From contig NMRA01000716.1 of assembly GCA_002633005.1 (NCBI GenBank), positions 110,596-174,595 of the forward strand: a stretch of 64,000 nt of DNA, in the 5' to 3' direction. This document shows, piece by piece, positions 4,275 to 53,907 of the stretch. This stretch comes from Phoronis australis. Its lineage: Eukaryota; Animalia; Phoronida. The stretch's first letter is position 1. Every line of letters begins with the position of its first letter. The notes beneath the pieces are model-generated. The model saw only the letters and a program-made list of their open reading frames with translations. It was not told where the DNA came from and ran no database searches. The translations under genes were made by a program, and so were the position numbers.

Positions 4275-4397
4275 CTGTACACCAATCGCCGTTGCCTTGG
4301 TAACCACTTTTACACGTGCACTTAAAACTGCCCGGTGTGTTTACACAGACTGCATTATGTGGGCATTTAGCTTCTCCGTTTGTACACTCGTCCAAAT
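4275..4397 (-). CDS. Calcium-binding EGF domain exon
   Basis: 123 bp phase 1-1 exon, tttcag/gtaatt; LDECTNGEAKCPHNAVCVNTPGSFKCTCKSGYQGNGDWC. Confidence 0.9.
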
Positions 4398-25731: not shown

Positions 25732-25794
25732 NNNNNNNNNNNNNNNNNNNNNNCTCCCTCCCTCCCTCCCTCTCTCCCTCCCTCTCTCTCTCTC
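25667..25794. repeat. (CT)n microsatellite containing an assembly gap
   Basis: Direct reading. Confidence 0.95.
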
Positions 25795-29923: not shown

Positions 29924-32900
29924 ATGAGTGATCCGACTAAAGAGGGTGCTGCTGAAGAATCATACCTACAACGTCGAAGACGTATGGGCCCTGCAGCAAG
30001 CGAACAGGAACCTCTCTTGGTGGGTGAAACGTGTGTGGCATTTGTAATCGTTTGGGTGCTTTGCGCACGTGTGTGTGAGTTAATTCACATCCGCTGCACT
30101 GTGCAAGTGATAATAATGTATGTCTGATATTTTTACGATCGGGAATATCTTAGTGATCATTCTCGCAGAGGATCTAGTTCTAAGAATTACTTGGGGAGGT
30201 ATCCAGAAGCTTTATGTTGCATTTTTGTTAGCTTGTTCATTTGTTGTTTTTCTTGAATTTCAGTTGATGTCTAAGTCCACTATTACGTTACTCCTGTGAT
30301 ACATACAAATTGGACACAAATGATTGCGTGCAAATTGCGGTTTCTTTTTCATCAAGAATTCAGTTTAACGGTGTGATGTTTTGCACTGACCCTTTATGAA
30401 ATGAAGTGTTATAATTATAAGAATGTACACTGTAGTTAGAGTATATATATGCATGTGTTACACAGTCTCCTTGAACACATTGCATTAGGCCTATAAGCAA
30501 ACGATCCCACCCAATGTCAACCTGGCCTGGAACTGAAAATATCCTCTGGCACATTATATCACTTCTTAACCATTAACTCACTCTTGCCAATGTCAACTTT
30601 GACCTATTGTCACCTTTGACCCATTATTTCTATGTATTTTGACCTATCATGTCACTTTGCTTCCTCTTCACAGAATGACATGGTGAATACGTGGGTTCTT
30701 GGCCTATTATGTCACTTTTCACCCACTATGTTAATCCTGACCCATTGTGATACTACTTTGGACGTATTAGGACAGCATCGACATCATGGGTCGGGGGTCT
30801 TGACCCATTGTGTCAGTTTCACCCATCATGTCACTTTTTATTCATTGATGCTTTGTAGACTCACTGTTGGTCAGTATTTTGCATAATATGTCGAAGGTTT
30901 CGAATCTGGATCTGAGTTATTATCTGTCTGTGACCATATTATGCCAATTTTGATCCATTAATTCACTTTTGTTCCATTATGCTAATATTGGAATAATGGA
31001 TGGGGCTGATTGAATATAACTCTGTCCAGACCCACGGCTGACCAGATTTGGTATACTCGATGTCCTTCCTCGGGGCAGACGCATGGGAGTGGTTGTTCTC
31101 GGGTGCCCAGGTATTACGTTCGCCATTGCGAGCACCCGCAAGCAGACAATGTGAATTCGTAGCCTAATTCTAGATTACTCTGCAGGAAAAATAGAAATTA
31201 AACTCACCAACGTTTCGAAGATTATGCATGCTAAGTGTCGTGACATGTGAAAGCCCCGAAAACTTCTGCCGTTTTGTGCTAATGAATCAATAATGTTCTA
31301 TTGAGTCAAAAGTCACAAAATGGGTCAAAGTTGATGTAAGAGGTCGAGGGTGCCGACCTGTTAGGTCAAAATTGACGTCATGGCTCGAAATCGCCGTTAC
31401 AGATAAAAAGTGACATCCACACTTCCGACCCGTGATCACGGATCACAAAATGTATTAATCCAATAGTGGAATAAATGTGGAGAATTAGCCTAATAGGTCA
31501 ATAGCCACGACCCATTACTTGAATTTTTACATGAGTTGTCAAAGATGTCATGATATGTCAAGAATTACCGAACCATAATACCAGTTTGTCAAAATTGGAC
31601 AAAAGTGACAACTTCCATTAAGCCTTTTTCAGAAAATTATGTCAATTTGTGAAGTGATTGCTTTTCTGTTAGCAGCTGTTTCATGGTAAATAACTTAAAT
31701 ATGATTCCTCGAAACTTTCTGCCAATGGCTATTGAGTGTTTGTAAATAACGAGTAATTTTATAAAGCTGCATTTCTCACATCAACCCCGTGCTCAACTTG
31801 CGTTTCTAACTCAGTCAAGGGACGTGGTTGTCTATTTTAACCAGCATGTACAAGTACCAAATGCCGTTTCAGGGACATTGCAGCTAATTTTGGTAACATC
31901 AAAAATGACTGCTAATAACCATTAAGATGGCGATCTCCTCATTGCAAATTGCTTAGCCACTATACTAAATTTCTTGTTTATTCCCCTTCGTTCTCGGTCA
32001 TGAGGGAGGACAACCCTAATGGTGAACTCAGCCTCCGCTCAGCCGTCATGAAAGGGAATCCCAGGTCATTTGTCCGAAAACATTTGACTTTTGCTCATGT
32101 ATTCGTCTTATTTTCAGTTTCCTGGAATGTTTCGTGGGAGTGGAGCACGTAAAGCTATTGGCAATGACGTATCAAGTAAGTAATTGAATGAAGTTATACA
32201 AAACGAAGTTCATAGGTTTCGACCAGTGGAAAGAGATCATGTCTCCGAATATCTCAAAACCACGCATAGTGCACGTGAATGAAAGTGGCACATACACAAA
32301 ACACGTACAAGAAATAGAACACAAGCTTTGCTTTAGGGCTAGTAATCGGCAATCTCAAGACAGCATTCACATAACTGAATAGATTGTAAATGTTTGATTT
32401 TTGTTACACTGTAGTCTCATAAAGAAATCTCTTTGTCCAAACTACGTACAAATTTGCAGTTATTCCATATGACCTAATGGTTGAGAGGTGCTCTTTTGTT
32501 TGTCTTCTTACTTTGTTCGTTGCACTGCCGGATTAAGCAATTATGAGGCCTGTAATTAAGTCGCAGCGTAAGGCCCCCACCAGAAATATTTTTACAACAA
32601 TTTTCTAATACCAAAAGCAAAATAGGTATAATTTTCACTTCTGAGAAGGAAAGCAATGGAGACGGCTTCTACACGATGAGGCAGACAGTGTGTCCACTGG
32701 CCAACGCTAGCCGTTGCGATCGAATTGGACGATTTCAGGATAATTCACACCCCGATAATCAGAGGCTCCGGTGTGCAAGTTATGATATCAATAAATAAGT
32801 AGAGACTCCCTTTTCAAATGCATACATTTTAAGTTTTGCAAATTTTCCGCTCTGTATTTTAACAAAACCCAAATTCAAGAATGGTTAGAATATCAAGCAG

Positions 32901-35900
32901 TGCCTGAAAAAGCACCATTTCAGCGAGAAACTGGTTGCAAAAAAGTCCCTTCTGAACGGCATGTCCGTCTTACACTTCCTATGGTAGTATCCCCCAAGAT
33001 AGAGACATATTTGTGTACAGCCGACACGGTAAAGCGAATTCTGCATGTCTCCTGAGTGCTCGGTACTTAAGTCAAGGTTTTAGATAGAGTGCCAGCACAA
33101 TAGACGACTCCAGCGTGGTCGACGTCCATTGCTACACATATATGTAAATTACTAGTTGAAGATACTCTTTCCTTTACTCACATCAATTTAGAACACAGAT
33201 GAGTTTCGTCAGTCGAAAGTTTGAAAATATTTGGAGTTCGTGTTGAACAAGCGTTATTTTTGTTAATTTTCAGCTGAACTAACTTGTTTCTTACTCCGTT
33301 TTATAGATTTTTTGTCTTTAAGTGGAAAGAGCATCTTTAAATTTATTCATGGACACCATCGGCTTTTCGGTCTATCAATGCAATTTTAGGAATATTTTGG
33401 ACGGTTTGACTTGTTGAACTTATTAGCTTGGAACAGAGCTATAAAGCAACAAAAGCCGCCGTCGTTTTTTGTGACTTTATTAAAAATCGCCAATTCTCGC
33501 CGTTTTCTGCCAGATATTTGCTGAAATCAGTGATTGCGATTACAATGTTCGGCCATCTGTTATGTGTGACTCAGATTCACAAGTAGAGCCCTGAGCTGCG
33601 ACCATGGGGGTTCTGGGTAATCAGTCTCATTTCAGAAATCACTTTTCTCGCCGATAATGTTCTTTGAAGTCAATAAATAATACTGATTAACTTCATAACT
33701 TTTGTAAATACGTTTTCTTAGCCTTTCAACTTCATAAGAACTTGCTGCTAGCCTAAATATTTGAAAATGTTTTGCGCATGTCCATAGCCTTATTGAATTA
33801 GAAATGATTTCATTTGATTTCCAATCGAAACATATTTACATGTAACAATAAAGACCAGTTCCTCATTTTTGATTGAAAGACATTATAGTTAAAATTACAT
33901 CCATTATTTGATATCCAACAGAACAAGACTTTATTTCTAACCTGATGGGTATTCAAGCAAAGCATCGCTGAATCATGATTTCAGGAAACACGGAACGTGG
34001 AGAAACTTGTACGGTCGCTGCAACCACTTCTGAACCTCTTAACGCAACACGAGAGGAGCATTTAGAAAGAGTTACTGATGGCGGTGAAACTGAAAAATCT
34101 GGCGATGAAGACGTTCTTTACGTTAGGGTCCCACGTGAGCAGCAAAGACCACCTAGCCAAGAGAGCGATAGCCTCGTGTCAGTTGGCAGATCGACGAGTG
34201 AATATATGGATAAATCAGGTAGTTCAACATTTTGGAGTGGGGAAAAGAAATACTGCCATTACAATATACTGTCGAGCTACCGGGGATTTGGAGTAGGCCT
34301 ATACCTTCATTGGCATAATCCATTATATACTGGAGCACAGAATGATGAATAAATTATTAAAGTATTAATAAAGGTAGAATGGAAAATTTCAATAGATTGT
34401 TGAGTTCAATAATGTGTAAAAGATTAGACCCGGGCCCTGAAGTTACCTCTACTGGGAGTTGAGTCCTATTTTAGCAAATTCAGAATTGACGTTAATATAT
34501 AGACTTCCACCGTAGAAGCTAAATAGTGAATGGTTACCTATGAATTGTTCCCTAAATAACGACAATGTGCAGATGAGCTCTTGCGGCAGGCCTTTGGGGC
34601 TTGAAGAGCGTGCACAAAGCCGTGACTGTCCTGTTACCATTCGGAATGTGCACATAAATTTGAATTAAAGCAGATGGGGCGTGTACACAAACCTGAACTA
34701 GAACAGGTACAACATGCAGATACAATTGAACAAGAACAAGCAGAGCCTGCCCAAAAGCAAGGAAAGCGTGAGTAAGCTACTTAGCCTGAGAGGTAGACGG
34801 CGTTTCAGCTTCCCATTGAGTTAAAACGACACCTAAGTCGGATGTGGCTTCAAACTATACACAGTCAGTCTAGTCAACCCAACGTGACGAAACATGACAA
34901 AAAAGTTGTCGACACAGATAGCTTCCTGGCCGATTTGAGAAGCTTTCCACATGTTAGAATTGGAACAAATATGGGTGGGCTGCGGACATCGAGTCCCTTG
35001 TCTACAAGCAGGGGCCTTTATAGGTTCAACTATGATCAACTAAAGGCGGCGCTTTTGTTGAGGTATGGACTGGCAGAAGACGGGTTCAGACGAAAGTTTA
35101 AAGAATCCATGTCAGAAAAGGGTGAGAAGGTGTTCCAGTTCGGGGCATGACAGAAGTGGTTCTTTGACCTATGAGCCCAAATGGTGGAAGTTGACGTGAC
35201 GTACATGATGAACTGCTTTGCTGATCCGTGAGCAATATCTGAACGCGTACCATCCGTGTTCTGGAAGATCGGAATCCTAACACTTTTGTCCACATGTCAG
35301 CGCTTTCACGGGTGCTCACTGTAATCTACTAGTACAACGGGCAAGGAGTTTTGGTTCAGGTAATCTAGACACTTGAATTGTCTAATATAATGGAGCGAGT
35401 GACAAAGGCTCCGAAACCATGTGTGACTAGAACTGGGGGTTAAATAGAGTTTTAACTGCGACAACAACGGTCATGAAGCCAAGTACTGTGAAGTAAAAGA
35501 AAACCAGTCTTAAACTTCTCTCGAGAAGTACAGTTGCTTACCTCGCAACAATAATGGGTTAAGAAGTGAGACGCCTACAAGGTAGGACTGTGTGAGGGTA
35601 CGGTACCGACGAGCAGTTGAGTAGAGCAACGTTTCGTTGATGGTCATTTCAGGTAGATTGATGGGACATCAAAACCAGTAGAGACATGGGCCTGTGATAG
35701 GCACAGTTCGCCACCACTGTCTAGAAATAGCTCACACATGTATCAAGTACTATGAGCCTATGTGTGAAAGCCTCATGCGGTGATACTAGCGTGAAAACGA
35801 TTATTCTCAGAAGCTAAGGTCTATAGATTTTTTAATATACATTACCGGATCTGTTTTCTTCGTAGAGACATCAAATAGATTCATATAACGACACCTTCTT

Positions 35901-38900
35901 GTCAGGGCTTAGCGTCCTCTGGATAATATCTTGGCATAGTGTGCTGGCAAAGTTACATCTACCTGTCAAGGGCTTGGCGTCCCCTAGATAGTACTTGGCG
36001 TTCCGTGCTCGCGAAATCGCTTGTGGTCAGCTTTTGCAATTCCACTGCAAGACTATACCGAATCACTTATATGAACTTCGACTCACTAGAGGCACATTAA
36101 CCATAGAATGAATTGTTTGAAGCTCTGGGCCCGGGTAGCCAAGGTGCCAGCTTAAAAAATGAAATCCCAACATCAAGAATGGGACTACGTACACTGTACG
36201 TGACTTGTTATTTTTGACGTAACAAAATGTCAAGAAATCAACAGAATAAACTAATGATACTTCAGAACAAATTATTGTCATCGTTTATCACAAACTTTTC
36301 ACGTTGTTTTTAGCTGTCCAATTCGAGTATGGTAATTATGGTGAGTCTTTCATTTGGCCAACCTCTGAAAATGATGATGAAGTCGGCAGCATCAACAGAG
36401 TAGATCACAAGCTGACGATTACGTATGTATTGAAGTTCTTAAACAGACTAACATGCCTTGTCATGGTTTCTAAGTTCACTTTTACATTTTTGAAAAGCGC
36501 TGCAGTGTTTGCCTGACTCAGGTACGAGTTTGCGTTTTATCTTGAATGATTCGCCTTAGTGTCTTAACTGGGGAAAGCGCGACTTATAGTCACGGTTACC
36601 TGTTGCATACTCAGACAACGGTACCCACATTGTGATGCTTTGTCCATAGTTATAGAGGAAAGGGAAAGGGTCATATTAAAACCAAACTCAGATAATTTGT
36701 AAATAGAACTTTTTTGATATGCATGTTTGTACTATTAATGTTTAGTAATGTGCAGTGTGGAATTCCATGTAAGCTGGCTTGTTGTTATTCTAGGGGCGAT
36801 CCACGAATGAATTCGATTCAGAAAGACCGTAACTTTTGGAGTAATTTATTAAAGGCGATACCTGATGAACTGAAGAGACTACTACGGGTGAAAAACAGAA
36901 TAGTGTGGTATCCGCGTTTATCAATAGATGTCGCTGTTTGTAGACCCGGAAGTCGGCGACCATATTGCATTCTATGACGCTGCATGTGAACGTTATCATC
37001 AGCTTGTATATTTTCACACATAAAACCCACCTAACACAATTGCAAAAACACGTAAAGCAACAGATCGTCTGATGATCCCTCTGTAAGCTTAACGTTACAG
37101 TCTGCGCTCTTCATTTTGGCCCAGTCACAGGAACAAAACTTTCATGTCCAATCTAAGACTGTTTATTGTTTTACAAATGACCGCTTAACAAACACCAAGT
37201 CGTAAGCGACTTTAAGGCGATATTATTTTAATCCGGATCCTGAAACGTGGCAACCGTAATTGATGCAATGTTCAAACGACACCCAGCAGCTTTAACATGA
37301 AGAACCAGTTATGTCATAAAACCGGAGCAAGACAAATGCCTTTTAAATTTGTTGATAAATCTATTTTGGTCAACTTTAGATGGGGACACCAGTTTGTAAT
37401 GTGTGGTTGAAACAATCAACCCAGAGTATTGCGAATGCCTTGCACAACTTACTTATACATTATGGCCTTGGCAAGGGGGTTTGTGTTCACTGCGGCTTCT
37501 TAAAATTTATTCAATGCCACCTGCAATGTTTTTAAACATTTGTCAACTCATTTTTTTCTGGAAATGCATGGCTTATTGTGATTTGATTGATTTGAAGTCT
37601 TATGACGTCAGTACTAGTATAGACAAATCAGGTTTGGGATCAGAACAGCAATCTAGGTATTGCTGAAGTTACAAATCTCTAACGGTATTTCTTAGCACAA
37701 CAATCGACCAGTCTTACGCATGGTAACTTTAAACGTTCGCTTGGGACCCATCATAACAACTTTAAAATGCGGTTTCGTTATGAGCATATGTATTTGATTA
37801 CGATGTAGCTAGGTGAATTCCAGATCTCTTACTAAGCGCATGCAAAAGGGCATGATTTTATTCACTAACATTTGAGAATGACATTCCCGTCACTGCATTT
37901 ATATTTACTTTTTAGTCCCAGACTGAAAATCATTTGGGTGTTGAAGCTTGCGAGAATAAGGACCTTGCTACTGCTCAAGAACATTTTCGCAAAGCTATTC
38001 AGCTAAATCCGAGCTGCATCGATTTTCATGCCAATGAAGCAGGTAGGTTGGAGATGTTGCCGATGGTGTTAACTGGGGTCTGACTCAATTCTTAAACCAG
38101 AAATTTGGTCACAAGCTAGCTTCCACTTCTCAGAGGCTGTTCAAGTGAGATTTAACAATTTTTTAACAGAGATACTCGTGTGGACAGCGTAAGACCAAAT
38201 GTCTGACTTAAAGTTTTATGTTACTTCATGAAACCGACCACTGGACATGTAGCCTGTCTGTAAATAATTATTTAATGGTGCCTGACTACAGGTACAAATC
38301 AAATGGAGCACAATTTGGCCTAAATTGTTTAGCCAAAACGTTACGTCTACAGTTTTGATGACCACTTACGCAAACTACAGTCCGGTACCGGCACTTCCAG
38401 TGAACTCAGAAAGACAGGTCACGACTGAATTCAGCACTGAGATTGGAAATTCTGTATTAACATTCTTTTCAGAAATTTAGGTGGGTTACAGCTGCAATGT
38501 TAACATCGAGTGGAAAATTTAGAGTTAACAGTTCTCACAACATGATTTTGTCATTAATTTTGGAAACGCTCACAAAGTAGTCTGCAATGTGTATTCCCGT
38601 GTACCCAGCATCCCTCTGTCGTTTGTAGTCCGTCCGTCATTACTTCTGTTGGTCTTTGATAAATCTCGAGCACCGCATAAGGTTGGGTTTGAGGAAAGAA
38701 CATCATATTACAGGAATTAGTGATCAGACATTATGAAACTTTCGCATACCATGCTTTGTGTACTGTTCTCCAAAATGTTGTTAGGTATGTTTTCAAAATG
38801 TTCAACTTTTACTTGAGGGGCTATCGACATGGGGTTTTTATGATCTTTTTGAAAACACTTCAGGTTTCATATAATGAAAACAAAAGGATTACTCATAAAA

Positions 38901-41900: not shown

Positions 41901-44900
41901 AATTTTTGAAATCTCACTTATCCATAATCAATCAATAACGGATACGATCTTTACTTAATCAGTATTTTTAGACAATATGAAAAAAATGCAGAAAGAAGTT
42001 ATCCAACAACGAATGTCATATCATTTTTAACGAACTCTGCACCAGAGAAACGCTAATGCCGAGTTATATTGAATGAAACAACATCCATTTAAAGAAATGG
42101 ATAAGCTTTAGAATACAACCACTGTATATCTCCTCAAGCTCAATAAAAGAGAGACTTAGTGGCAAACAATAAACTTCCGCGACTATGTTTACGCTATAGA
42201 TTGAAAAGATGAAGAAGGAAAAGGAACGACCAGCTCACGTTAAGCAAGAATCACCACTTGAAGAGAAATGCAAGGAAGAGGAACGTCTCACAAATGGTAA
42301 TGTGATCTTGGAACGCTAAAGGAGAATGACTCTTGGTCATTTACTTTGGTCATAAGTTATTGGAATGTCCACTTTGAAAAATTAAGAACTTTCATCAACT
42401 TCCTACCTCGTTTCGTTCATTTTCACGAACGTACAAAACACTATCGGACAGGCTTAGCCTAACATTCAGAACCACAGTGCAAACTCAGTAATTTATTGAT
42501 ATGATCTTGTTACCGTCTCTGAACTGTGACAGTCGGAGTCACCACGAAAATGTGAATGTTGGAGGGCTTACATGTAGCTCAATCCAAGAATTTGTCAATT
42601 TACATGGAGAAGATTGGTGTCTGGCATGTGCAGTTGGATCTCCTCAATCCCTTGAAGGAACTTGATGACATTTGGCATAAGTTTTTTTATGGATCTGGCA
42701 TAGTGATGTTGCTTATTTTCCCCTCCGCTACGCCCGCCTTCTCATAGTATGGAAGTTCATGGAAATGAGCAGAAGTGTTCCTATTTTGGATATCGAATCG
42801 AATCTACCACTGATGAGCGCTCTGGTGACATATTTAGGTTTTCCCATTTCGCCGAATGTTTTGCCGTCCCTAACTTCTGTCGCGCCCTAATCCGCATGAC
42901 AGCGTTCTGTCGTTCAGCAAATTTTCCAGACGTGAGAGGTTAGGAACGAGCGATAACATCTGGCTCCTTTGTTAACTGCCCCGGACAGTCTACATGTATT
43001 GTCCCGTATGACACAGTGGCAGATCTAGGATATCATAAGGGGGGGGGCCCCAACATTTTGTCAGGCGGTAAGCATTTGCGCAAACCACGATTGTAGATGC
43101 GCATAGCAGCGAATGGGGGGAGGTCTGGAGGGGGGATCTCCTCCCGCCCAGGAAATTTTTCTGTTTTTTTCTCCAAAACTCAAGCATTTTCCTTGGTTCC
43201 TGAGGTATTATCCGAGAAAAGCAGGCAAAAAAAAAGAGGGAGAAGGAATCATACAGGAAGACCTGCAAGTACCAGAGACTCGAACTCACGACCTGACGGA
43301 TAGAGCGTGCGTGCTTTACCACTACACCACCACGACTTAGCTAATAACTCTTTAACAAGAGACCTACTTGTTTATGGTCCACAGCGTTTGCGCGCGAAAC
43401 CTACTTCTTTTTGTAATGCTTATTACACGTTTTATATTTTGTGCAATCGGTTCTTAACAAATTTGATGTATTTAAAATAGTCTTGAAATGCCCAAAAGAC
43501 CAAATCCGTTTTTCGTGTTGGCAATTATGACGGGATTGCTTTGGAAATCGTCTTAAGTTAAGGTTTGAGAAAGAGAGAATTATGAGTTTCTGAGTGATTC
43601 ACTGAGGCTTCGATTAAAATTCACATCTTACCAGCAGCTTCTGTTTTTTCATCGTCACTCAGGTTCCATTTTCTTTAAAAAATGAAGTAAATTTTCTTCA
43701 TTGCACAGTGAAGCAGACGACGGAAACAGAGTCGTAGTGCGCAGCGCCACTGCCGGTCGCCTGGGATATCGCGGGAGAGCCTATACTTAGCCATAGCTCC
43801 GTTACGAATGCGCCGTGTTCCGAATTTNGGCAGCCAAGGCCCCCCCCCCCCTAAATCCGCCTATGTGACAACAAGCAGGCCAATTATCTACCCGGCTTCA
43901 CTGGGGTTACTGAAACCTGGCAGTAGTAGAGCGATTTTAGTGATTCAAAAACTAAACATGATCAGCATTTGACAAGGAATTCACAAATGCTATTGGTTTA
44001 TGCTCAAATATGTTATAAATTAACTTTCATTTTTATCAGCCCAGCCCAGTCCGGGCTAGATAGGTCTACGATCTGATAGGAGATTAGAGCAATTATCGAA
44101 TAACAGAGAGCGGGAACTTCCAACCATAAATGCTAGAGTGGAGTTAATCAGTCGTGTAAGATATTGGCTACAGGGGTAAACTTCCCAACTTGTTGGGAGC
44201 AACAGGAAAACGCCATAATTGAACTTCTGTGGCGCCATCTTCAGGAATGCTAATACAGTGGTGATGCTTTATAACCTCAAAGCCTCTCTAAGAATTCCAA
44301 ATTGAAAACTAAACAGGGTGAAACGCAGATTTAAGACAAGGTAGCCTCGAAGGTATGGTAGTACTCAAAAAATCAATTCAAAAACACAAGGTTGTCAATC
44401 ACTTGAATTGTTTATGCTTTCATGACATTCATTATAGTTCGGTAGCAGCCCTTCGTTAACACAGGCTTTGTGGAAAACACGACTAAACTTTTTGTTTGAA
44501 AGCTTGATACTGAGTCGCTCGTAATGTCGAAACATTCTCCTTTCCTCGGGTGTGCAACTATGAAGTTGACCTAAAACACCAAGAGACATAACAAACAAAC
44601 AAATTAAAACACAAGCTATATTTCGAGACAGCATGTCTCGTCATCAAGCAATAAGTACATGAAATGAATGTTGGATTCAAGCAAGGTCTGAAGGGACAAC
44701 AGTTCACCATGCACAATTTACAAGTTAAGATATCATCGACATAGCGGACATAGATAGGAATTTTGGCAATTTGGCAATATGCTGAGCGACCCGTTTTTCA
44801 ACTTCTGACGTGTAAAATTCTGACAACGTTGGGCCTAAGAGGGAACCCATATTGACGCCGTCTTTTGTAAAAACAACTTGCTATTAAAATGCCGATAGGG

Positions 44901-47900
44901 GACTTGAGGTGTACAGATAGTGAATAAAATGCGCGTAACCTAGGTTGTGAGATACAGTGTATCAGTTGGTTTTAACAAGAGCAACGCAGAGCGTTGAAAT
45001 GCGCCCACAATTGCACCGTATATGGTATCCTTCTGGGTTTGTTTATTGGTACCATAAAGTGGCCAGTAGAGGGCATATATGTAGTATGTTGTACTTTGCA
45101 AAATGGAAAGGCATGGTCATTGTCTCCTCAATAGGCTAGGTTTCAAAATGTGAGTGATCTTCATAATACAAGTGCATCCTATGCATCAGTTGCTTAAAGC
45201 ACACAGAAACATAGAATTAAAAACAAATTTACCAACATACGAGATTAGCACAGCATTAAAATGCCAGAAACAAATTTCTACTTGGAAATTTTCCTTCATA
45301 GTCACGAAGTAACACAAAGTATACACCTGAAGACCTATGAAAATACAGAGGTCAATGTGAAATATTTAAATTGCCACTAGAGGCATACCGGTAGTCAGAA
45401 TCATCCTAAAGTCGTCATCGTCCGTTGTCNNNNNNNNNNNNNNNNNNNNNNNNNNNNNNNNNNNNNNNNNNNNNNNNNNNNNNNNNNNNNNNNNNNNNNN
45501 NNNNNNNNNNNNNNNNNNNNNNNNNNNNNNNNNNNNNNNNNNNNNNNNNNNNNNNNNNNNNNNNNNNNNNNNNNNNNNNNNNNNNNNNNNNNNNNNNNNN
45601 NNNNNNNNNNNNNNNNNNNNNNNNNNNNNNNNNNNNNNNNNNNNNNNNNNNNNNNNNNNNNNNNNNNNNNNNNNNNNNNNNNNNNNNNNNNNNNNNNNNN
45701 NNNNNNNNNNNNNNNNNNNNNNNNNNNNNNNNNNNNNNNNNNNNNNNNNNNNNNNNNNNNNNNNNNNNNNNNNNNNNNNNNNNNNNNNNNNNNNNNNNNN
45801 NNNNNNNNNNNNNNNNNNNNNNNNNNNNNNNNNNNNNNNNNNNNNNNNNNNNNNNNNNNNNNNNNNNNNNNNNNNNNNNNNNNNNNNNNNNNNNNNNNNN
45901 NNNNNNNNNGTGGCGCAAACTATGTCGAATCCATCTGAAAACGGGAGGATAGCGTCATCTCACTAATAAGTGCCTACATACCAAATTTCATGAAAATCCG
46001 TTCAGGACTTTTGAAGATACAAAGGTAAGCGTAAAAAACTAAAATTGCCACTAGGGGGCACACCGGTAGTCGGATCAGTCCGAAAGTTCGCACATGCCGC
46101 CCCATTCATGAATGGAACATATGTGCCAAATTTCATGAACATACGTGAAAGGGTTTTGGAGATAGAGCAGCGGACGCCAGATGCCGGACGGACGCCGCCC
46201 GTACGGACGGACGGACGGAGATGACGGCATAATGCGTCCACATATAAATATGTGGGCGCATAAAAATGAGTGCGTATACATTCATTCTACTTATTGCCTG
46301 ATGATGAGACCTGTAGTCACGAAATATAGCTAGTGTTTCAATTTGTTTGTTTGTTTGTTTGTTTGTTTGTTATGTCTTCCGTTGTGTTACTACATAGTTG
46401 CACACCCGAAGAAAGGTGATTGATTCGACATTACAAGCGGCTCATTATCAAGTTTTCAAACAAACAGTTTAGTTGTGTTTTCAACGAAGTTTCATGATAT
46501 TTATACACAGATGGCGTTGCCAATGCGGCCAGCCTGGGAAAAGATGACGAGCATCCGCGAACACCACATTACTCTCAGTTTAAGTGTCGACTTGACAGTT
46601 TCAAGAAGTGGCCCTTGTCAAAGTATCAAAGCGACTTCAATTTGGCAAAAGCAGGCTTCTATTTCATTGGTGAGCTGAGACTATCCCTGTGTTTGCTTTA
46701 AATGTTGTGTGAAAACTAAATCCTATGAATATCTTTATCAGACCTGTTACTTCTGAAGTGTTCTACGTTTCGTTATCAACACTGCATGGTAGAAGGTAGA
46801 CTTTGGGAGACATGATGTTAGTCTTGTTTTCATGATGCACCATTCGCAGTTGGCAGGTGGGCAACTCTAGACAGTCAGAAAACCTTAATTCTTTCTGCTC
46901 GATTACTCTTGATTGTACTTTAAATCGACAGCGTTAAGATAATCAGTAGCCTGAACATTTAAGACATTTGATTTCATTTTTCGCCCTTTTGTGAACGGAA
47001 ATGGTACCAGTGCTAACAGTGTGTCCTGTATACTCCCTGAAGCCCCCAAGTTCGATTCACAATCATAATAGCGTTATGAGACCGATTATGTGACGGAAAA
47101 TTGTCTTAATCAAGGGCTGCCTTCATGGACAGAACGCAGGTTTATAGGCACTTGAAATATGTCTTTCACTCTCCCTGTAGGTAAAGCTGACCTCGTCAAA
47201 TGTTTCTTCTGCGATGGCTGCCTCTCAAACTGGGAGCCAAAGGATGACCCAATCATAGAGCACGCTCGCTGGTTCCCACAATGCGGCTACGTCCGCCAGA
47301 GGATGGGCAACGATTTCATACTTGTTGTCACAGAGTATTTTGCACAGCTTAATTTGGTAAGTTCAGAAAGCATGAAGTTGTATCTGATTTTAAGTTGGTA
47401 ACATTGATTTGCCTGGCAGAAGGTACAAGAAACAGCTTGGAAACCGAAAGAGCACATATCATTGTACCAGAATGTGTTTGCTGTGTTGTTTCTTCCCATA
47501 TTCGAAGGTGGTTGCTGATTTACAAAACCGTCTCACTGCAATTGTTTTGTCTTGCTTATCTGCAGTTCCCATTCGGAAATAATGTAGCAAGCAGCGTCTA
47601 TCTAACATAATTTGAACTTTGTCTTTTAAATTCAAAGCTGGATGTTTATTATTATTCAGCGTGCCCGAAATGTTCTCCGAGGGCGACCTTTTCGCCCACT
47701 TCGTCAAATGAAGGGTTTGTTCAAGCCCTCCGACTACCCTCCCCCCCTTCTGAGTGCGCGCATGTATGCGGCCCAGGAGCAGAGTCTGAATTTCAAGTCC
47801 AGGGCCCCGTTCCAAGAAAAATGACTTAGCTAAGACAGATCTTAACTTTCAGTTAATTTTAAAAGAAGACTTATATTTGTCTCAAGATCATTTCAAAAAG

Positions 47901-50900
47901 AGATCTCTTAAAAGTTGGACTTAAATTTTGACTATCTTAGCAGATGTAGAAGTTTCAAAGTTCGGAATTTGAGACAAATCTTAGATTTAAGTAAAAATGA
48001 ACTTAAGTCAGTTTTTTGTTAGGGGCCCTTGGCTTGTACTGACATGTCAGTACATTTGTGGACACGCTGTGTTTTATTCGAGCAGGAAAGTGCATCGGTT
48101 GTTTGTCAAGACAATTGTGCCAATCCAACCAGTGATCATCATGCAGAAAGCTACCAGAATAGTGAAGCTACAGACAAAACCATTATCGTTGACAAGTGCG
48201 ACTCTACCGAACTGACAGCCGGTGGTTTGAAGTTGGTGACAGATGCAGCAGATAAAGGTGTTCACAGGGATACTATTAAAGGTGAACGTTATTTTTATAG
48301 ACATTCAAAAAGTTCGACTTTTGCGTAATTTTCTAATTATCATTGCCTTCAGTGGGTCATTGTTTGCAAGTTTTGCGAAATTTAAATCTTCTAAAAAAAT
48401 TTCGCAGTCCATTGTTAATAAAAACAACAATTTATTTAAATCGACTTGACATGTTTCGGCGTTTACTAACACACCATCTTCAGAAGTAAAAACAATGGCC
48501 ACTATGCGGACCCAACAACAAGTAATGGTACACAGACACAGTCAGTTACAGGGTAGCAGACGGAAACAGACTAGACCAATGAGCAATTTTAATTAGATCA
48601 TTGACTAGACTAACGATGACAACCTGTGGTGTGCCAGTAGCCTATTGAGAGTGTGCTTGTACCAATTGATGTGTAGAACCTCACGAATTTTAAGCTCCTT
48701 TGTTGTTTCTGCTTGGTCTGTGATAGCAGATTAGTCATTGAAAGAGCATTGCTCATTGCAAAGATTGGCGCTCTGCAGACGAGTTTTAATATGTGAACTT
48801 CTGTCAGAATTTAGATGTTCCCTGGTCCAGGTTTTCAAGTGGCGAGCAATTTCGCCTATATAACTGGAGCCACACCCAGCACAGATAAATTTGTACATTA
48901 CGCAATCCCTATAGCAGGAACAACCTTTGACCAGTTTACTCATTGTGTCTGCCTGGTTCTTACTGCATCGATGTCTAGTGATCTATATTTTAATGAGCTC
49001 AAAGAGAAAGACATGCCCAAAGACCTTTATAGTCGCACAATTCGTTGAGGGAGTCGCAATTGTCCCTTCTACAGAAGATAGTCGACTGCCAGTCTAAGGT
49101 TTTCCCGCCTTTCCTGAGACCGCTAGAATTGGAGAGATGTGATCCCCACAACATAAAGCTTTAACTAGGAATGTCCGACTGAAATGTTCATAATTAGTGA
49201 TATACGTGTACCTGGGCATGGACTTATACATAATCGTCATCAGTTAGTATATTTTTAAAATGTGCCCAAAAGACAGTAGTTAAAAACAGACTAAATAAAG
49301 TATAGTTTTTCTAGTAAAAGGTGTTAAGAGCATTTGTCATTGAATAAAACCTGTTTATATTTTGTTTCGAAAGGATATTTAATGGTAATGTAACTAAGAC
49401 TGGATAATTATAAATGTACAAGGCACAAGTTTCTTTATTCAACATTAGCACTAAATCGCGAGTATAAATAATACCTCCAAGGTTCATTGCTTATGCCGAC
49501 ATAATTTATAAAACTAACGTTTATATGTCTGAAATTCATTTTACAGTACAAAGGTTAAAATAAATTAGTGGTTAGGCGCAATAACGTCACGTTCAACTCT
49601 TGCTAAATTTCCACAAAACGCTCATTGCTATAAAAGTTCGACTAATCTGCCAAATATTTCTGGCAACAAGTGTGCCATAGTTTGGTGGAGTCTAACAGAA
49701 TCGTGTCAAAATATGAACTGATAATTTGAACACCACTGTATCTGTGGAACGTAGCTTGGCAAATGAATAACCCTTTCAGTAAAGCAGCGCTCAACAGGTA
49801 TTATCTTGCCTCAAGTTAATCGCACACTACAGTTAAACCAACAATGGTGGAATGTTGCAGTAGCGCCATGCAGTACCTTTCACTACAACCTTTACCAAGT
49901 AATTGACAACAGAGAATCTATGAGTACTTTATATCTCTTCCCACTTCACGAAGAGCTAACAATGCAGGTGCTACATTGTAGATGGAATGGTTACGTTGGA
50001 AAAGGCCAGACTGCAAAACTTGGACTCTTCCTCCGCTGATTTGATGGCTGGTGAGTTCGAATCATCAATGGAATACCAAATTGAAGCTAAAGCTGTTGAT
50101 GAACATGTTAACCAACGCACTGAACAAGGTAAACATAACTTTCAATCAGTTCACTGTTCCTTTAAATCCAACCGTCGTATTTTGAAATGCTAGAGTGCCT
50201 TGAAAAGAGCAGTGTATATCCGTGCATATGTGTTTGGGTGTGAGCGTCTGTGTGCATGGGCTTGTATAACTTTCTCAAACGTGTCCAAAATCATTTCAGA
50301 TAAAAACTCGGAACAGCTGGATGAGGAGGAGGAGAGACTGGCAAAGGAACTGCAGCAACTCATTGAAAGAGAAGGCGGATCAAAGTCTGGAGGGTCCCTT
50401 CTTAAAAAAATGGGTGACGTTTACAAGATGCGGGGTTCATTAACAGAATGTGTACAGCATTTTGTTATTGCATCGTCATTATACAATGCGGCACTAATGA
50501 GATGCGATAACCCAGAAATGATTGCAAGACTTGAAACATCGCTGAGAGAAAATGAAATAGCCTTCTTTGACATGCTATCAGTTCCGATCAGCAAAATACC
50601 AATGAACTTCAAACTTGAAATGAAACAGAAATTGCAAACCATCAGACAATATGTTTCTTTGAAGACGGGGGAAACGTTGAGAAAGTTTACGCAAGAGTTT
50701 AGTTTAGAAGATCAAGAAAATGAGAGAACAGAATTAGAAATGATTTTTGTTCAGGAAACCAGAGGTATTTTTATGGATTTGCAAGCCAAAATGAAATCCT
50801 TCCATAAGGAACTCCTTTCAAAGTGTAAGGAGATTTTAGGACCACCACCCCAGGAATACACTGCAATAGCCATGGGATCTTTAGCAAGGGGCGATACAAC

Positions 50901-53661
50901 GCCATATTCAGACTTAGAATGGGCGATTTTGGTGCAAGATGACTGCAGAGATGTCGAATACTTCAGAAACATGGTTCGGTTGATGCACTTATTCATTTTA
51001 AATGTCGGAGAAACATACCTTAGGACAATGAGCATCAAGTCGCTTAACAACTTGGATAAACCTGGCGGAAATTGGTTTGTTGATGACGTGGTAGCTCGCG
51101 GGATTGAATTTGATAGTGCTCTTCCTTTTGCTTGCAAAACGCCACTCGGTCGACCTGACAGACCCGGAAAACCAGGTTTAGAATTAATCAAGACCCCAGC
51201 AAACATGGCTAAATTATGCGAAGTTAACATGGCTGTAAAAGAGGGTTACATCATCGATCGGGTGTTGACGATTGTGACGAAACTTGATGGAAGTGATTCG
51301 CTTTTTGACAAGTTCAGATCACTGAAAGCACAGTACCAAGATGAAGAAGCTGCACGCAAGAAATATGCTCAAGACATGCGCAGTCTAGCGAAAGAGTTCT
51401 TCCCGGAACTTAGTTTTCATAGCGGGAAGAGAACTCGACATGACATAAAAAGAGAGATGTTCAGGTTGCCGTCTCTGTTCGTCACTCTATTTAAACCATT
51501 ATTTGGTCTATATAGTGACAACACCTGGAATATCATATGTGAGATGAGTTCCAAAGACATTCTGACAACAGAGGGCGGGCACAATTTACTTGTACTCATT
51601 TCCATAACAGCACTTTTAAGGCTGATGATGTATTCCACTAAATCAAGCCAAAATGAACAGTTTGTTTTGTTACAAACGCCAGTGCAAATGCGCCAGTCAG
51701 CAGAGGTTTTATTTGGATACAGTGGACTTCACAAATTAGTAATAAGATATTATTACTCACTACTGCCGTTAGTTGAGTATGTGAATGACACTCCACTATC
51801 AGCCATGCTTAATCGAAGGAAACTAGAACTCACATTTTTTGAAAAAAATTATCTATGTGCGGGTCTCATACAGTTCTACTGCCTTTGTTACGAAAGTGCC
51901 CGGGACAATTTTTTTGCTCAGATTGAATTGGTTTCCACAGAGAAGTCGCTTCCAAACCAGCATCACCCAGAAGACATAGTTGTTCAATACAAGGGCAGGG
52001 ACATTTTCTGTGACCACACAGAAAAGAAAGTATTAAGTTGCCTCTTAATGATTGGCAATACATACAAGGAAGAAGGACAGGCAAAAGACGCGTTAGAATA
52101 CTATTCGAAAGTACTACCTATCATGCGGAAGAACGAAAACGAGGCCTACAACATATTATCACATAAACCAAATTACTTTGAAAACCTTTCTTTCGTGTTA
52201 CAGGTAATTGGGGGACTACACTCTGAGTTGAACCAGCATGAGTTAGCCTTAAAATACCACCAAGAGTCTCTGCGTATGCACAAGAAGATATATGGCAAAC
52301 ATTCAGACCATGTGTGCATTGCGTCTAGTTTGTACCAAATTGGGACAGACCATAGTAAAATGAATCAGCATGAGTTAGCCCTCCAACATTTTGAAGAGTC
52401 GCTGAATATGAAGAAGAGAATTTATGATAAAGTTGACCATCCAGAGATAGCGGGAACACTGAATAACATAGGATGGCAGCACAGTGCTTTGGGCCAGCAC
52501 CAGACAGCTTTAGAATTTCACCAAGACGCCCTGAATATGTTCAAGAGGATCTATGGTAAAGTTGATCATCCAGTTATTACAACTTGTTTGAATAACATTG
52601 GGTTGGAACATGGGTATTTGAAGGAGCATACGTTAGCGTTACAGTATCTCCAAGACTCACTAAGTATGAAGAAGAGGATGTATGGTGAAGATGATGGCCC
52701 AGACATAGCAACGAGTTTGCATCGGATCGCAATGGAGCATTATGAGATTGGCCAGCACGAGTTAGCTTTACAATATCAACAAGACTCACTGAGTATGTGG
52801 AAGAGAGTTAGAGGCGATGTTGACCATCCACACATTGCAGGGGCTTTAAATGCGATTGCAAAGGTGCATAGTGCTCTTGGCCATCACGAGACAGCCTTAC
52901 AATGTTACAAGGACTCAGTAAGTATGAGTAAGAGGATTGATGGGGATGTGGACAGTATAACAATTGCAAGAATGTTGAAAGGCATTGCGATGGACCACTG
53001 TAAGCTGAGACAGAACCAGTTAGCTTTGATATATCTCTTAGACTCACTGGATATGATGAAGAGAATTTATGGTGAAATAGACCACCCTGACATTGGAATT
53101 GTCTTGAATCACATTGCGACCAATTATAGACTTTTGGGTGAGCTCAAATTTGCCTTGCGTTATTTTCAAGACTCAATGACTATGAATATGAGGATTTATG
53201 GTGAGGTCGACCATCCAACCACTGCAAGTGAGTTGAATAACATTGGGTTGCAATATTCTGAAATGGGCAATCATGAAATGGCTGTAAAATATTTGAATGG
53301 GGCACTGAACATGCGCAAGAGGATGCATGGTGACCAGAAAACTATTGATATTGCACTGGTCTTTAATAACTTAGGGTTTTCATACAACGCGTTGGGCCAG
53401 CATAAACTAGCCTTAGAAAACCACCAGGAGGCACTGGGAATGTTCAGGAGAGTTTATGGTGACGTTGATCACCCATGCATCACTCTTAGCTTGAATTGTA
53501 TTGGTAGAGAATATGCTATGATGGGCAAGCATGAGATAGCCTCCCGGTACTTCCAAGAAGCAATGGATATGTACAAAAGGGTTTATGGTGAGCATGCTGA
53601 TCAATTTGATGTAGGACATCTTTTGCTTATGAAGTTGCAACCACTCAGTGAAATGCCATGA
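29924..53661 (+). CDS. Multi-exon chimeric gene: HOP/STIP1-TPR2A + BIR + DUF294-like nucleotidyltransferase + about 12 TPR repeats (about 1640 aa)
   Basis: Modelled exons 29924-30023, 33985-34218, 36314-36426 (uncertain), 37916-38042, 40671-40773, 41220-41340, 42200-42296, 46511-46669, 47181-47356, 48086-48281, 49982-50128, 50300-53661; all have GT/AG sites and compatible phases and join without stops. Confidence 0.7.
30550..31620. repeat. Foldback-like intronic element with tgacccatt arrays on the left and aatgggtca/aggtca arrays on the right
   Basis: Repeated ttgacc(c/t)att motifs at 30590-30980, with the inverse orientation at 31300-31600. Confidence 0.45.
33985..34218 (+). CDS. Low-complexity acidic N-terminal exon of the central gene
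   Basis: tttcag/gtagtt, 234 bp phase 1-1, [14 protein letters not shown]...MDKS. Confidence 0.6.
34950..35490 (+). mobile_element. Gypsy-type gag fossil in intron
   Basis: [35 protein letters not shown] (Gypsy capsid-like) and a decayed zinc knuckle [14 protein letters not shown] near 35448-35490. Confidence 0.65.
37916..42296 (+). CDS. HOP/STIP1 TPR2A-derived module (four exons of 127, 103, 121 and 97 bp)
   Basis: [29 protein letters not shown]...[71 protein letters not shown]...[25 protein letters not shown] aligns colinearly with STIP1 TPR2A and the following linker. Confidence 0.85.
43014..43865 (+). mobile_element. Non-autonomous hAT-like DNA element (copy 2), intronic
   Basis: Same termini and body as 23036-24045; flanked by TGACA on both sides; single N at 43828. 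Confidence 0.8.
44395..44670 (-). mobile_element. Penelope-like element pseudo-LTR / ORF-start fragment (inverted partner at 46279-46495)
   Basis: [32 protein letters not shown] resembles a Penelope N-terminus; preceded by hammerhead-like ttgatgacgagac...gtctcgaaa. Confidence 0.55.
44974..46266. mobile_element. Helentron-associated HINE/DINE-like element spanning the 480-N gap
   Basis: aacaagag start, sub-terminal gcgcccac / gtgggcgca inverted pair, internal repeats (tgccactagagg..ccggtagtc; ccaaatttcatgaa), (acgg)n microsatellite and 3' hairpin ending taaaaa. Confidence 0.6.
46511..47356 (+). CDS. BIR (baculovirus IAP repeat) domain, two exons 46511-46669 and 47181-47356
   Basis: RLDSFKKWP...[10 protein letters not shown]|[37 protein letters not shown]: complete BIR consensus with CX2CX16HX6C zinc ligands. 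Confidence 0.95.
47800..48030. mobile_element. MITE with GGGCCCC termini (Tourist/Harbinger-like)
   Basis: agggccccgttccaagaaaaatgacttag ... cttaagtcagttttttgttaggggccct. Confidence 0.55.
48444..48487 (-). ncRNA. Minimal type I hammerhead ribozyme at the 3' end of a Penelope-like element
   Basis: ACTT-CTGAAGA-T-GGTGT-gttagtaa-ACGCC-GAAAC-AT-GTC-AAGT: stem I, catalytic core, stem II, palindromic stem III and GUC cleavage triplet. Confidence 0.75.
48640..48943 (-). mobile_element. Penelope-like GIY-YIG endonuclease fossil
   Basis: [30 protein letters not shown]...H...C, then [11 protein letters not shown]...LN; interrupted by a stop. Confidence 0.8.
50300..53661 (+). CDS. Terminal exon: DUF294/GlnD-like nucleotidyltransferase, helical domain and about 12 KLC/NPHP3-like TPR repeats
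   Basis: Open frame of more than 1100 codons; [26 protein letters not shown] (pol-beta hGS...DxE), [13 protein letters not shown]; 42-aa repeats HPxIAxxLNNIGxxHxxLGQHxxALxxxQDSLxMxKRIYG; tttcag acceptor at 50299. Confidence 0.9.
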
Positions 53662-53907
53662 AACGTCTTTCCTGAAAACATATTGCCCTCGATTACGTGA
53701 ACGTCGGCACTGCAAACCCGGTATCCCCTAGTGCAACGGCCTCAGATCTCTGTTGTTTATGATGTTTATTAGTGATATCAGGAAGAGATAACCAGCTGGT
53801 TATTGATATTGACAAAGACAACTCACCTGATACCAGGCGTTGGCTTTTAGCACACGACAAACTTATTTACCGTAAGATACTAGCCACACACTGCAACGTG
53901 AAATGAN

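Follow-up and report, generated by a model that had tools for sequence, protein, structure and literature searches.

DrrA (SidM) modifies Rab1 at Tyr77, and GlnE modifies glutamine synthetase. NAIP combines its BIR domains with a domain that uses nucleotides and with a sensor made of repeats, and the co-chaperone HOP (STIP1) has the layout TPR1-DP1-TPR2A-TPR2B-DP2. In the portion of a 2025 review that was available, FICD and SelO are named as the eukaryotic AMPylases, GS-ATase and SidM are named as bacterial AMPylases of the nucleotidyltransferase fold, and G-X11-D-X-D is given as the SidM motif (PMC12409994). For Neochlamydia, the accessible part of one report describes the NEX2 family, consisting of an F-box, an optional OTU domain, DUF294 and TPRs, with a type III secretion signal demonstrated for the tested members (PMC4209131). 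This paper describes an expressed gene of Phoronis australis, which is a shuffled BIR- and HOP-bearing version of an unstudied animal DrrA/GlnE-like family.

The analysed window comprises 64,000 nt of assembly GCA_002633005.1 (contig NMRA01000716.1, positions 110,596-174,595, forward strand); all positions given here are counted within it, and all features lie on its plus strand. A first-pass annotation had predicted four modules, and all of them were present at the claimed positions, in the order HOP/STIP1 TPR2A-like part, BIR, DUF294-type nucleotidyltransferase (NTase) and TPR array. The core gene model (37922-53661) consists of 9 exons and 8 introns, all GT-AG, and the exons spliced in silico encode 1,493 residues with 0 stops. 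The open chimera of about 1640 residues proposed earlier holds for this stop-free core; its full length and the start codon at 29924 are putative, as the two upstream candidates (29924-30023 and 33985-34218) cannot be joined to 37922 directly. Three exons serve as linkers: a charged exon after TPR2A (42200-42296), with a phase-1 donor, an RNA joint to 46511 and no PDB match; an exon of no known domain (48086-48281), joined to 49982 and without a Pfam match; and a phase 1-1 exon (49982-50128), also without a Pfam match, for which the incoming joint was found in RNA and the outgoing joint to 50300 is presumed. The terminal exon (50300-53661), identified by its open frame and RNA depth, contains 1,119 codons and a TGA and codes for a helical hairpin, the DrrA/GlnE-like NTase with its helical bundle and the TPRs.

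Expression was followed in the RNA contigs X1 and in the raw runs X2, X3 and X4 of the species; the three runs belong to one study, and their reads show a divergence of a few percent relative to the window. Among the 15 joints listed of 96, two of the raw runs contained junctions of the expected orientation for seven of the eight core introns, and six of these seven were also present in an X1 contig. The joint 38042-40671 is covered by 16 and 17 reads. In X2/X3/X4, the joints 40773-41220 and 41340-42200 are covered by 14/11/0 and 26/14/0 reads, the joint within the BIR (46669-47181) by 14/7/2, and the joints 47356-48086 and 48281-49982 by 13/14/0 and 16/9/0. The transition from HOP to BIR (42296-46511) is documented by 25/13/0 reads and by an X1 contig. 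A misjoin at the N gap (45430-45909), which the first-pass annotation had named as one way in which its reading could fail, or at the single N at 43828, was ruled out, since RNA reads splice across both. The same holds for a lack of expression, as RNA reads cover the gene in X2 and X3. From the four junctions that had been singled out for checking, 42296-46511, 47356-48086 and 48281-49982 were recovered in reads, but the 15 listed joints, of 96, do not include 50128-50300. The depths of the HOP, BIR and NTase exons co-vary over X2, X3 and X4, with the large exon at 19-36x in X2 and X3 and at 0.5-3.4x in X4. The chimera is to a large extent real, and very likely a single expressed gene.

The N-terminal part of the core is formed by three exons that are colinear with residues 228-266, 268-300 and about 305-335 of human STIP1, the third weakly (E 0.78). 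Repeat 1 (37922-38042) is equivalent to human residues 227-266, was matched by phmmer to STIP1 7kw7_E (228-266) and carries an RNA joint; repeat 2 (40671-40773) is equivalent to residues 267-301 and was matched by phmmer to 1elr and 7kw7 (E 3.5e-6 and 2.2e-5); and for repeat 3 (41220-41340) the weak colinear match is to residues 106-136 of STIP1 9qqu. While the three exons correspond to human TPR2A (228-335), the TPR2A portion stands alone and its clamp has decayed. TPR1, TPR2B and the DP domains of HOP were not found in the gene, and RNA splices the TPR2A exons onward to the BIR exon. The dicarboxylate clamp of TPR2A is formed by K229, N233, N264, K301 and R305, as taken from a list of MEEVD contacts (PMC5480384). 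The corresponding residues here are N, V, N, K and H, so that 2 of 5 are kept. At other contacts, A267 is kept, Y248 is F, Q298 is A and N308 is D, which leaves 3 of the 9 listed contacts identical. Because the clamp is reduced to 2 of 5 residues, Hsp90 binding, which had been claimed for this part, appears unlikely on sequence grounds. The HOP piece would probably act as a passive helical spacer or as a re-purposed binding surface rather than as an Hsp90 dock.

The BIR is encoded by an N-terminal exon (46511-46669; Pfam BIR, E 3.7e-4; joint to 47181) and a C-terminal exon (47181-47356; Pfam BIR, E 6.7e-14; matches to BIRs of NAIP, cIAP and XIAP; joint to 48086), and the best PDB match of the latter exon is NAIP BIR2. 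All four zinc ligands are intact (C 47201, C 47210, H 47261 and C 47282), and the site fits the pattern C-x2-C-x6-W-x9-H-x6-C. The groove of type II BIRs is defined by E/Q76, H77, W/H80 and C84 (PMC8917759), and the sequence E-H-A-R-W-F-P-Q-C found here agrees with this definition, E-H-x-x-W-x-x-x-C. The domain announced as a complete BIR is therefore an intact type II domain, with Pfam matches in both exons and its zinc ligands kept. In this it resembles the IAPs (BIRC proteins), especially NAIP; it differs in being a single internal BIR, without a RING or NACHT match in the scanned exons, and the lack of a RING, noticed before, was borne out among the exons scanned with Pfam. A keyword search of the supplement of an IAP survey (2,843 IAPs) returned 0 rows with TPR or DUF294; the same supplement contains 1 row with a Mab-21 NTase, from the crinoid Anneissia (BIR and Mab-21-like). 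In a small, selected sample of 18 read differences evaluated at the codon level, from the 40 of 671 listed, amino-acid changes account for 4 of the 6 variant codons in the first BIR exon and for 1 of the 6 in the enzyme unit, the other 5 there being synonymous. The changing codons in the first BIR exon and the decay of the HOP part fit relaxed constraint.

The NTase unit (50419-51819) was identified by a structure model and by its motif. The 16-residue stretch claimed as a pol-beta NTase motif falls inside a DUF294 match (Pfam, E 2.6e-6); it is present and intact, and by its residues it looks active. The motif G-S-x10-D-L-E (50875-50919) reads as G-X11-D-x-E, which is the SidM pattern with E replacing the second D. 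The predicted catalytic residues start at G 50875 and S 50878, followed by D 50911 and E 50917, with D 51112 as a candidate third metal-binding carboxylate. In 33 sequences G, S, E and this third D (D271 in the numbering of the unit 50302-51933) are invariant, and D204 is conserved in at least 90%. The NTase model was obtained with a pLDDT of 84.8 and a pTM of 0.87. The VIA comparison to DrrA (6yx5_B) resulted in Z 24.7 with an rmsd of 3.9, 319/339 residues aligned and 14% identity, and that to the E. coli GlnE domains in Z 22.9 and 21.0 with 304-320 residues aligned, the N-terminal de-adenylylating domain of GlnE being the second-best match (Z 22.9). The best unrelated chain reached Z 8.9, and aminoglycoside NTases reached Z 7-8. 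By Foldseek, only 4 matches had E < 0.001, all of them DrrA and GlnE chains, and a profile of the unit aligned onto the catalytic motif of DrrA (E 0.047). On the model, a pol-beta core is combined with a helical (HEPN-like, DUF294_C) bundle, a family link made in the consulted section of PMC3710099. No cGAS or OAS chain was among the best 50 matches of Foldseek and VIA, which by itself excludes nothing. HEPN RNases carry the motif R-x4-6-H; neither the helical bundle encoded in the window nor that of the amphioxus rows contains it, and RNase-type HEPN activity was rejected.

Because the DrrA and GlnE matches lie far above those to unrelated folds and the motif is intact, the modelled enzyme likely works by AMPylating proteins and not as a synthase of the cGAS/OAS kind, and the analogy to OAS and cGAS drawn by the first-pass annotation found no support. 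Since the model matches both DrrA and the de-adenylylating domain of GlnE, the predicted reaction may be forward or reverse. With DrrA/SidM (6yx5, 3nku), the gene product shares the predicted fold and a G-X11-D-x-acid motif with similar flanks, but D-x-D there is D-x-E here, the gene is spliced and of animal origin, and in place of the Rab1 GEF and PI4P-binding domains that follow the ATase, a TPR array extends to the stop codon. With E. coli GlnE (1v4a, 3k7d; Pfam DUF294/DUF294_C) it shares the fold and the DUF294 match, but GlnE has a PII-regulated two-domain design, whereas here a single NTase unit is fused to the BIR and the TPRs. The array (approximately 52027-53592; Pfam TPR_10/TPR_12, E ~1e-73) contains 12 repeats by counted repeat starts, in agreement with the number suggested earlier, but with a period of about 43 rather than 42 residues.

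The NTase-TPR module belongs to a large family of 1,067 clusters, which is expanded in amphioxus and common to intracellular bacteria, as in Neochlamydia NEX2. The relatives match DUF294_C and SidM_N, and the motif pattern was found in 287 of the 291 retrieved, but a BIR in none of the 291. The combination regarded before as undescribed appears new in its BIR fusion, absent from these relatives and from the keywords of the 2,843-IAP survey, but not in its enzyme-TPR module. N-terminal adaptors are interchangeable within the family, with CARD and IRF in amphioxus and F-box and OTU in bacterial-type members. Stand-alone forms are common, because 29 of 147 relatives begin with a Met just ahead of the unit. 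Throughout the family, the enzyme is consistently accompanied by the TPR array. The nearest named relatives are amphioxus proteins (28-38% identity), which accounted for 25 of 32 matches in one search and for all 120 matches listed, of 196, in a second. These proteins show the same order of enzyme and TPRs, some with CARD or IRF in front, but none with a BIR. Their automatic name is 'Protein-PII uridylyltransferase N-terminal domain-containing protein'. Outside animals, nearly all named relatives come from host-associated-type bacteria. NEX2 shares the NTase-TPR core (P0027; E 3e-25, 27% identity), with DUF294 in mid-protein and C-terminal TPRs as here, and a variable N-terminal adaptor; it differs in being bacterial (chlamydial) and in having an N-terminal F-box in the majority of members, where the spliced gene described here has the HOP-like TPRs and the BIR. 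Trees of the family (38 rows in a quick version, then 20 rows in a careful one) have long branches and no root, and nothing is concluded from them about the direction of transfer. In the literature searched, no paper on an animal DUF294-TPR family or a BIR-DUF294 fusion was identified; a listing in the source data of PMC8195603 is possible. The gene likely originated by exon shuffling, in which the new exons were added to one large exon; the family to which this exon belongs is related to effectors that intracellular bacteria use.

On the preferred reading, the HOP and BIR exons of an expressed gene are spliced onward to a DrrA/GlnE-type enzyme with 12 TPRs that transfers NMP to proteins, a proposal for which the chances are evenly balanced. 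The protein would likely attach AMP, or another NMP, from NTP to target proteins, and by analogy to DrrA on Rab1 and GlnE on glutamine synthetase its product would rather probably be a nucleotidylated protein hydroxyl. The C-terminal TPR array could, about as readily as not, bind a ligand or substrate and gate the activity. More tentatively, the BIR might capture, as substrate or trigger, proteins that expose an IAP-binding motif at the N-terminus, for example Smac-like antagonists or caspases after processing.

The preferred reading depends on the last joint, 50128-50300. If exon 49982-50128 is read through, it stops at TAG 50191-50193, and the locus could then encode a short HOP-BIR protein ending there and a separate NTase-TPR gene. 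Such a division, with which the missing entry for this joint among the 15 of 96 listed, the break of the X1 contigs between about 50060 and 50414 and the existence of stand-alone relatives would agree, is nevertheless improbable. The intron is a canonical GT-AG intron in phase 1 on both sides, and the bin that contains it implies bin-level depths of 23.2x and 24.5x if spliced and of 15.5-16.4x if retained; with the BIR exons implied at 17-28x and the large exon measured at 19-36x, this agrees with splicing, as does the co-variation of depth over the three runs. Further, family homology begins no more than 10 codons into the large exon, and its first ATG lies 36 codons in (50410), so the conserved first helices precede any start, and this exon must be spliced to a donor further upstream. 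Taken together, depth, phase and homology make the joint very likely, and it is highly probable that this splice connects the BIR to the enzyme exon. Within a single gene, the NTase-TPR part might work as in its relatives, with the HOP and BIR exons as recently captured, transcribed passengers without a targeting role. The reduced clamp, the absence of a BIR from all 291 relatives, the excess of residue-changing variant codons in the first BIR exon (4/6 vs 1/6 in the enzyme, in the small, selected sample) and the frequency of stand-alone members speak for this; it is still rather unlikely, as the four zinc ligands and the type II groove are intact, the frame is kept through 8 introns and 1,493 codons, and relatives carry other signalling adaptors (CARD, IRF) at the same position.

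As to the reaction, the enzyme could run in reverse, as the N-terminal domain of GlnE does, and take off the AMP that bacterial effectors have placed on host proteins, or it could nucleotidylate a small molecule. The rank of the de-adenylylating GlnE domain among the fold matches and the host-associated type of almost all named non-animal relatives are consistent with the former, but the best match in both structure and sequence is the forward AMPylase DrrA, and the low Z-scores of aminoglycoside NTases argue against a small-molecule substrate, so that neither reaction has much probability. Still less probable, and very improbable on the whole, is a synthase of second messengers like cGAS or OAS that would be activated through sensing by the TPRs. 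It would belong to the same pol-beta superfamily, and both the BIR and Mab-21-like protein of Anneissia and the Mab-21 and TPR proteins described in oysters provide parallels, but the model contains the DrrA/GlnE helical bundle, with 300-320 aligned residues at Z 21-25, and the relatives match DUF294_C and SidM_N.

The expression of an animal gene in which a SidM/GlnE-like unit is intact, and the strong expansion of its family in amphioxus, suggest that a class of protein-modifying enzymes in animals has been overlooked. A protein AMPylase of this type would be a kind of animal enzyme without description in the literature searched. It is a rather doubtful extension of this that animals possess a third AMPylase class beyond FICD and SelO, namely DrrA/GlnE-fold immune switches of adaptor, enzyme and TPRs, shared with effectors of intracellular bacteria, with the BIR in this case aiming the enzyme at caspases or IAP antagonists; AMPylation, and not ubiquitination through a RING, would then control cell death. 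Through its BIR, this member narrows the candidate substrates to a few (caspases and antagonists that bear an IBM), so that the chemistry of the family becomes directly testable. It also offers a clear example, supported by RNA, of exon shuffling, by which parts of a co-chaperone with a housekeeping role, of an IAP and of an enzyme resembling effectors were likely combined into a new protein.

At the 5' end, a candidate first coding exon with ATG 29924 and a phase-1 donor (29924-30023) was identified from the sequence only. A candidate second exon of 78 codons (33985-34218), acidic and of low complexity, has an open frame with AG/GT ends and an implied depth of 27x/29x/4x in X2/X3/X4, if all bin coverage belongs to it. 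Its direct joining to 37922 was ruled out by a frameshift from phase 1 to phase 0 with 128 stops, and because of this phase mismatch the link to 37922 would require a further exon or a different donor. The exact 5' edge of exon 37922 is a prediction, the reads defining its 3' joint only. Trial models resulted in open frames of 1,612-1,633 residues. The candidate bridging exons 36314-36399 (1,633 residues) and 36746-36768 (1,612 residues) and a phase-0 donor at 34292 (1,629 residues) all found no support; at 36399 the depth of reads does not change, and an X1 contig continues past this position. Since reads also cover the region 36300-37900, where X3 reaches 28x, without a step in depth at 36399, additional isoforms may be produced.

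For the gene on the plus strand, nine core exons (37922-38042, 40671-40773, 41220-41340, 42200-42296, 46511-46669, 47181-47356, 48086-48281, 49982-50128 and 50300-53661) were joined by frame into 1,493 residues and a stop, all eight core introns being GT-AG. Four runs were aligned to 33900-53800 at 90% likeness: X1, a contig set presumed to represent RNA, and the raw RNA-seq runs X2, X3 and X4, all three of which derive from one study and were sampled at 18-19%. First mates of the raw runs map to the minus strand, as is expected for plus-strand RNA in most stranded libraries. Spliced reads were identified at 38042-40671 (16/17 reads), 40773-41220 (14/11/0 in X2/X3/X4), 41340-42200 (26/14/0) and 46669-47181 (14/7/2), and at three junctions which the first-pass annotation had proposed for an RNA check reads were found in X2 and X3: 42296-46511 (25/13/0), 47356-48086 (13/14/0) and 48281-49982 (16/9/0). 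The first of these, leading from the HOP-like exons to the BIR, is reported one base downstream in the reads (42297-46512, 4,214 bases skipped) with the frame unchanged, and is read as a GT-AG intron with a single base differing where the exon begins. Since this joint spans both assembly breaks, a misjoin at the N gap, which had been named as a refutation of the chimera, is excluded.

The splice 50128-50300, which fuses the BIR to the enzyme, is very probable. It was not found among the best 15 of 96 RNA joints listed. The bin containing this intron has an implied depth of 23.2x (X2) and 24.5x (X3) if spliced, near the depths of the BIR exons (17-28x) and of the large terminal exon 50300-53661 (19-36x); the same bin would give about 16x with the intron retained and about 41x with the large exon alone covered. 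X4 has low depth on the exons of all three parts (HOP repeat, BIR and enzyme), bin 41868-42531 excepted. The homology of relatives begins at most 10 codons into the large exon, the first in-frame ATG of which is located only at 50410. Counting against the joint, X1 contigs are interrupted near it, read-through of exon 49982-50128 would run into a stop at 50191, and stand-alone forms make up 29 of the 147 relatives taken from the E-graded search.

At the 5' end, two upstream candidate plus-strand exons, 29924-30023 and 33985-34218, have a mutual splice that is good on paper, and end in phase 1, while exon 37922 begins in phase 0. A straight joining of 33985-34218 to 37922 was ruled out, as 128 stops arise. 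Three trial bridges from these candidates to 37922 gave models of 1,612-1,633 aa. Of the about 1640 aa annotated originally, the open 1,493-residue core stands, and a full length of this order with the candidate upstream exons is plausible. The supposed intron region 36300-37900 is covered by three X1 contigs, and its same-strand RNA depth at listed sites reaches 11x in X2 and 28x in X3; near the gene's 5' end, it may represent a retained intron, a UTR or an exon used alternatively.

The BIR was identified by Pfam as a full domain, as the first reading had it, and is split across two exons. Its closest PDB matches are the BIRs of NAIP, ML-IAP, cIAP and XIAP. All four Zn ligands are present with the spacing given in PMC13159474, and the domain carries the type II residues defined in PMC8917759, where type II BIRs are described to bind caspases and antagonists bearing an IAP-binding motif (IBM). 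The HOP-like exons are colinear with human STIP1 228-266, 268-300 and, by a weak match (E 0.78), ~305-335. Compared to the TPR2A contacts listed in PMC5480384, N264, A267 and K301 are retained, and K229->N, N233->V, Y248->F, Q298->A, R305->H and N308->D are changed. Only two of five Hsp90-clamp residues are kept, and binding of the Hsp90 tail, which the first reading cited for HOP TPR2A, is therefore unlikely.

The enzyme unit (50419-51819) was identified as DUF294 (E 2.6e-6), with a weak SidM_N match (E 0.011; both Pfam). G192, S193, E206 and D271, numbered within the stretch 50302-51933, are invariant and D204 is nearly invariant in a 33-sequence alignment. For the AlphaFold model (pLDDT 84.8, pTM 0.87), Foldseek gave four matches at E < 0.001, each a chain of either DrrA or GlnE. 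In VIA, a re-examination of Foldseek's matches with 963 chains aligned, the predicted model matched DrrA 6yx5_B (Z 24.7, rmsd 3.9, 319 aligned), the GlnE N-terminal domain (Z 22.9, rmsd 3.8, 320 aligned) and the GlnE adenylylation domain (Z 21.0, rmsd 4.0, 304 aligned), the best unrelated chain reaching 8.9. A five-sequence profile, aligned independently, retrieved the DrrA catalytic motif at E 0.047, outranked by an apolipoprotein A-I coiled coil (E 0.044). PMC12409994 gives the SidM motif as G-X11-D-X-D, AMPylation of Rab1 Tyr77 by SidM, AMPylation and de-AMPylation as the functions of the two GlnE domains, and FICD and SelO as the eukaryotic AMPylases. Downstream of the enzyme, the predicted number of twelve TPRs was confirmed, with a period of ~43 rather than 42 residues.

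Relatives form 1,581, 1,067 and 307 clusters at E 0.001, 1e-10 and 1e-30, none exceeding 43% identity among the 150 listed. Branchiostoma accounts for 25 of 32 named matches, the others being Neochlamydia and Hydra, and for 120/120 listed in a profile search (best 120 of 196), the profile itself holding an amphioxus row. The catalytic pattern is present in 287 of 291 fetched proteins; the BIR occurs in none of these 291, and the HOP module matches only weakly, to their TPR arrays. Domain scans of 10 + 20 selected proteins showed varied N-termini: amphioxus members bear CARD or IRF, Neochlamydia an F-box, and other relatives CARD, OTU or EGF. In two amphioxus proteins with N-terminal CARD or IRF domains (P0019, P0021), a segment may resemble the TRADD-N domains of PMC8195603.

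When prokaryote genomes were scanned with a single pattern, 13 loci emerged: one Holosporaceae, one Rhabdochlamydiaceae, ten gammaproteobacterial on one 697-kb chromosome, and an Anaerolineae match of 28 residues. The ten (L003-L012, OZ257147.1, a MAG) all carry the NTase, L012 having NB-ARC and TPRs in its open frame, and are read as an NTase-STAND-TPR expansion within a tiny genome. According to PMC4209131, proteins of the Neochlamydia NEX2 family combine an F-box and an optional OTU with DUF294 and TPRs, and the members tested carry a type III secretion signal; DUF294 and TPRs are common to NEX2 and the window gene, whereas the F-box/OTU N-terminus is NEX2's. In a 20-row tree, unrooted, with long branches and most relatives left out, the window protein groups with six amphioxus and two other proteins, apart from seven bacterial rows, Hydra and three further rows (support 99/96). 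Common ancestry of the window enzyme and bacterial effector-like proteins is shown. The Hydra vulgaris NTase-TPR-ankyrin protein (P0028, 64-Mb contig) lies among bacterial-type rows (support 100/98), either a candidate separate transfer or symbiont sequence inside the assembly.

Across the family, enzyme and TPR array form the constant part and the N-terminal adaptor the variable one. In the proposed mechanism, the BIR exons are, with high confidence, fused to the enzyme exon; the enzyme would, on balance, be an AMPylase nucleotidylating a protein, the TPR array might with even chances select or gate, and the BIR could, more tentatively, recruit IBM-bearing proteins. The main rival treats the BIR and HOP exons as mere passengers; in its favour, variant codons alter the residue in 4/6 cases in the first BIR exon versus 1/6 in the enzyme unit (18 read differences tested, drawn from the 40 listed of 671).

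Enzyme fold and NTase-TPR core are already known in bacteria. Neither the animal enzyme-TPR family nor this BIR fusion is described in the literature as available, including portions of PMC3710099, PMC8195603 and PMC3482391, and a keyword search of main text and supplement of the PMC13159474 survey of 2,843 IAPs gave no TPR or DUF294 entry; the combination still appears undescribed, as claimed at first. Data 3 row 49 of that supplement lists crinoid Anneissia japonica XP_033106383.1, with BIR and Mab-21-like nucleotidyltransferase, an independent BIR-NTase fusion of an enzyme class unlike that of the window gene. The window gene has a real chance of representing a class of animal AMPylases that has so far gone unrecognised.

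The window is of eukaryotic type and contains introns, repeats and EGF exons, and four N runs (25732-25753, 43828, 45430-45909 and 53907). Its BIR, EGF and STIP1-like exons, together with the relatives in amphioxus, point to an animal host. Directly after the single N at 53907, segment 53908-54902 repeats 52912-53906 at 99.3% (988/995 bases), so that the final TPRs, the stop codon and the 3' flank occur twice; a contig join at which overlapping haplotypes were left uncollapsed is the probable cause, genuine tandem duplication being the alternative. Repeat sequence flanking the 480-N gap (44524-46515) has opposite-strand RNA depth of ~250-940x; these reads most likely stem from a dispersed element with copies elsewhere. 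Two copies of an 820-base dispersed repeat (23036-23840 and 43014-43827) are 87% identical, the latter ending at the single N 43828. Region 34700-35330, with low same-strand RNA depth, has broken open frames that resemble a Gypsy-type gag remnant; it had no match in Pfam. The coding-like segments 16032-16411 and 19908-20287, inverted and 89% identical, suggest two paralogous genes on opposite strands; they may resemble CLCA-like proteins, a likeness that neither Pfam nor PDB searches supported. On the minus strand, a neighbouring gene has exons for calcium-binding EGF domains at 3476-3748 and 4210-4425.
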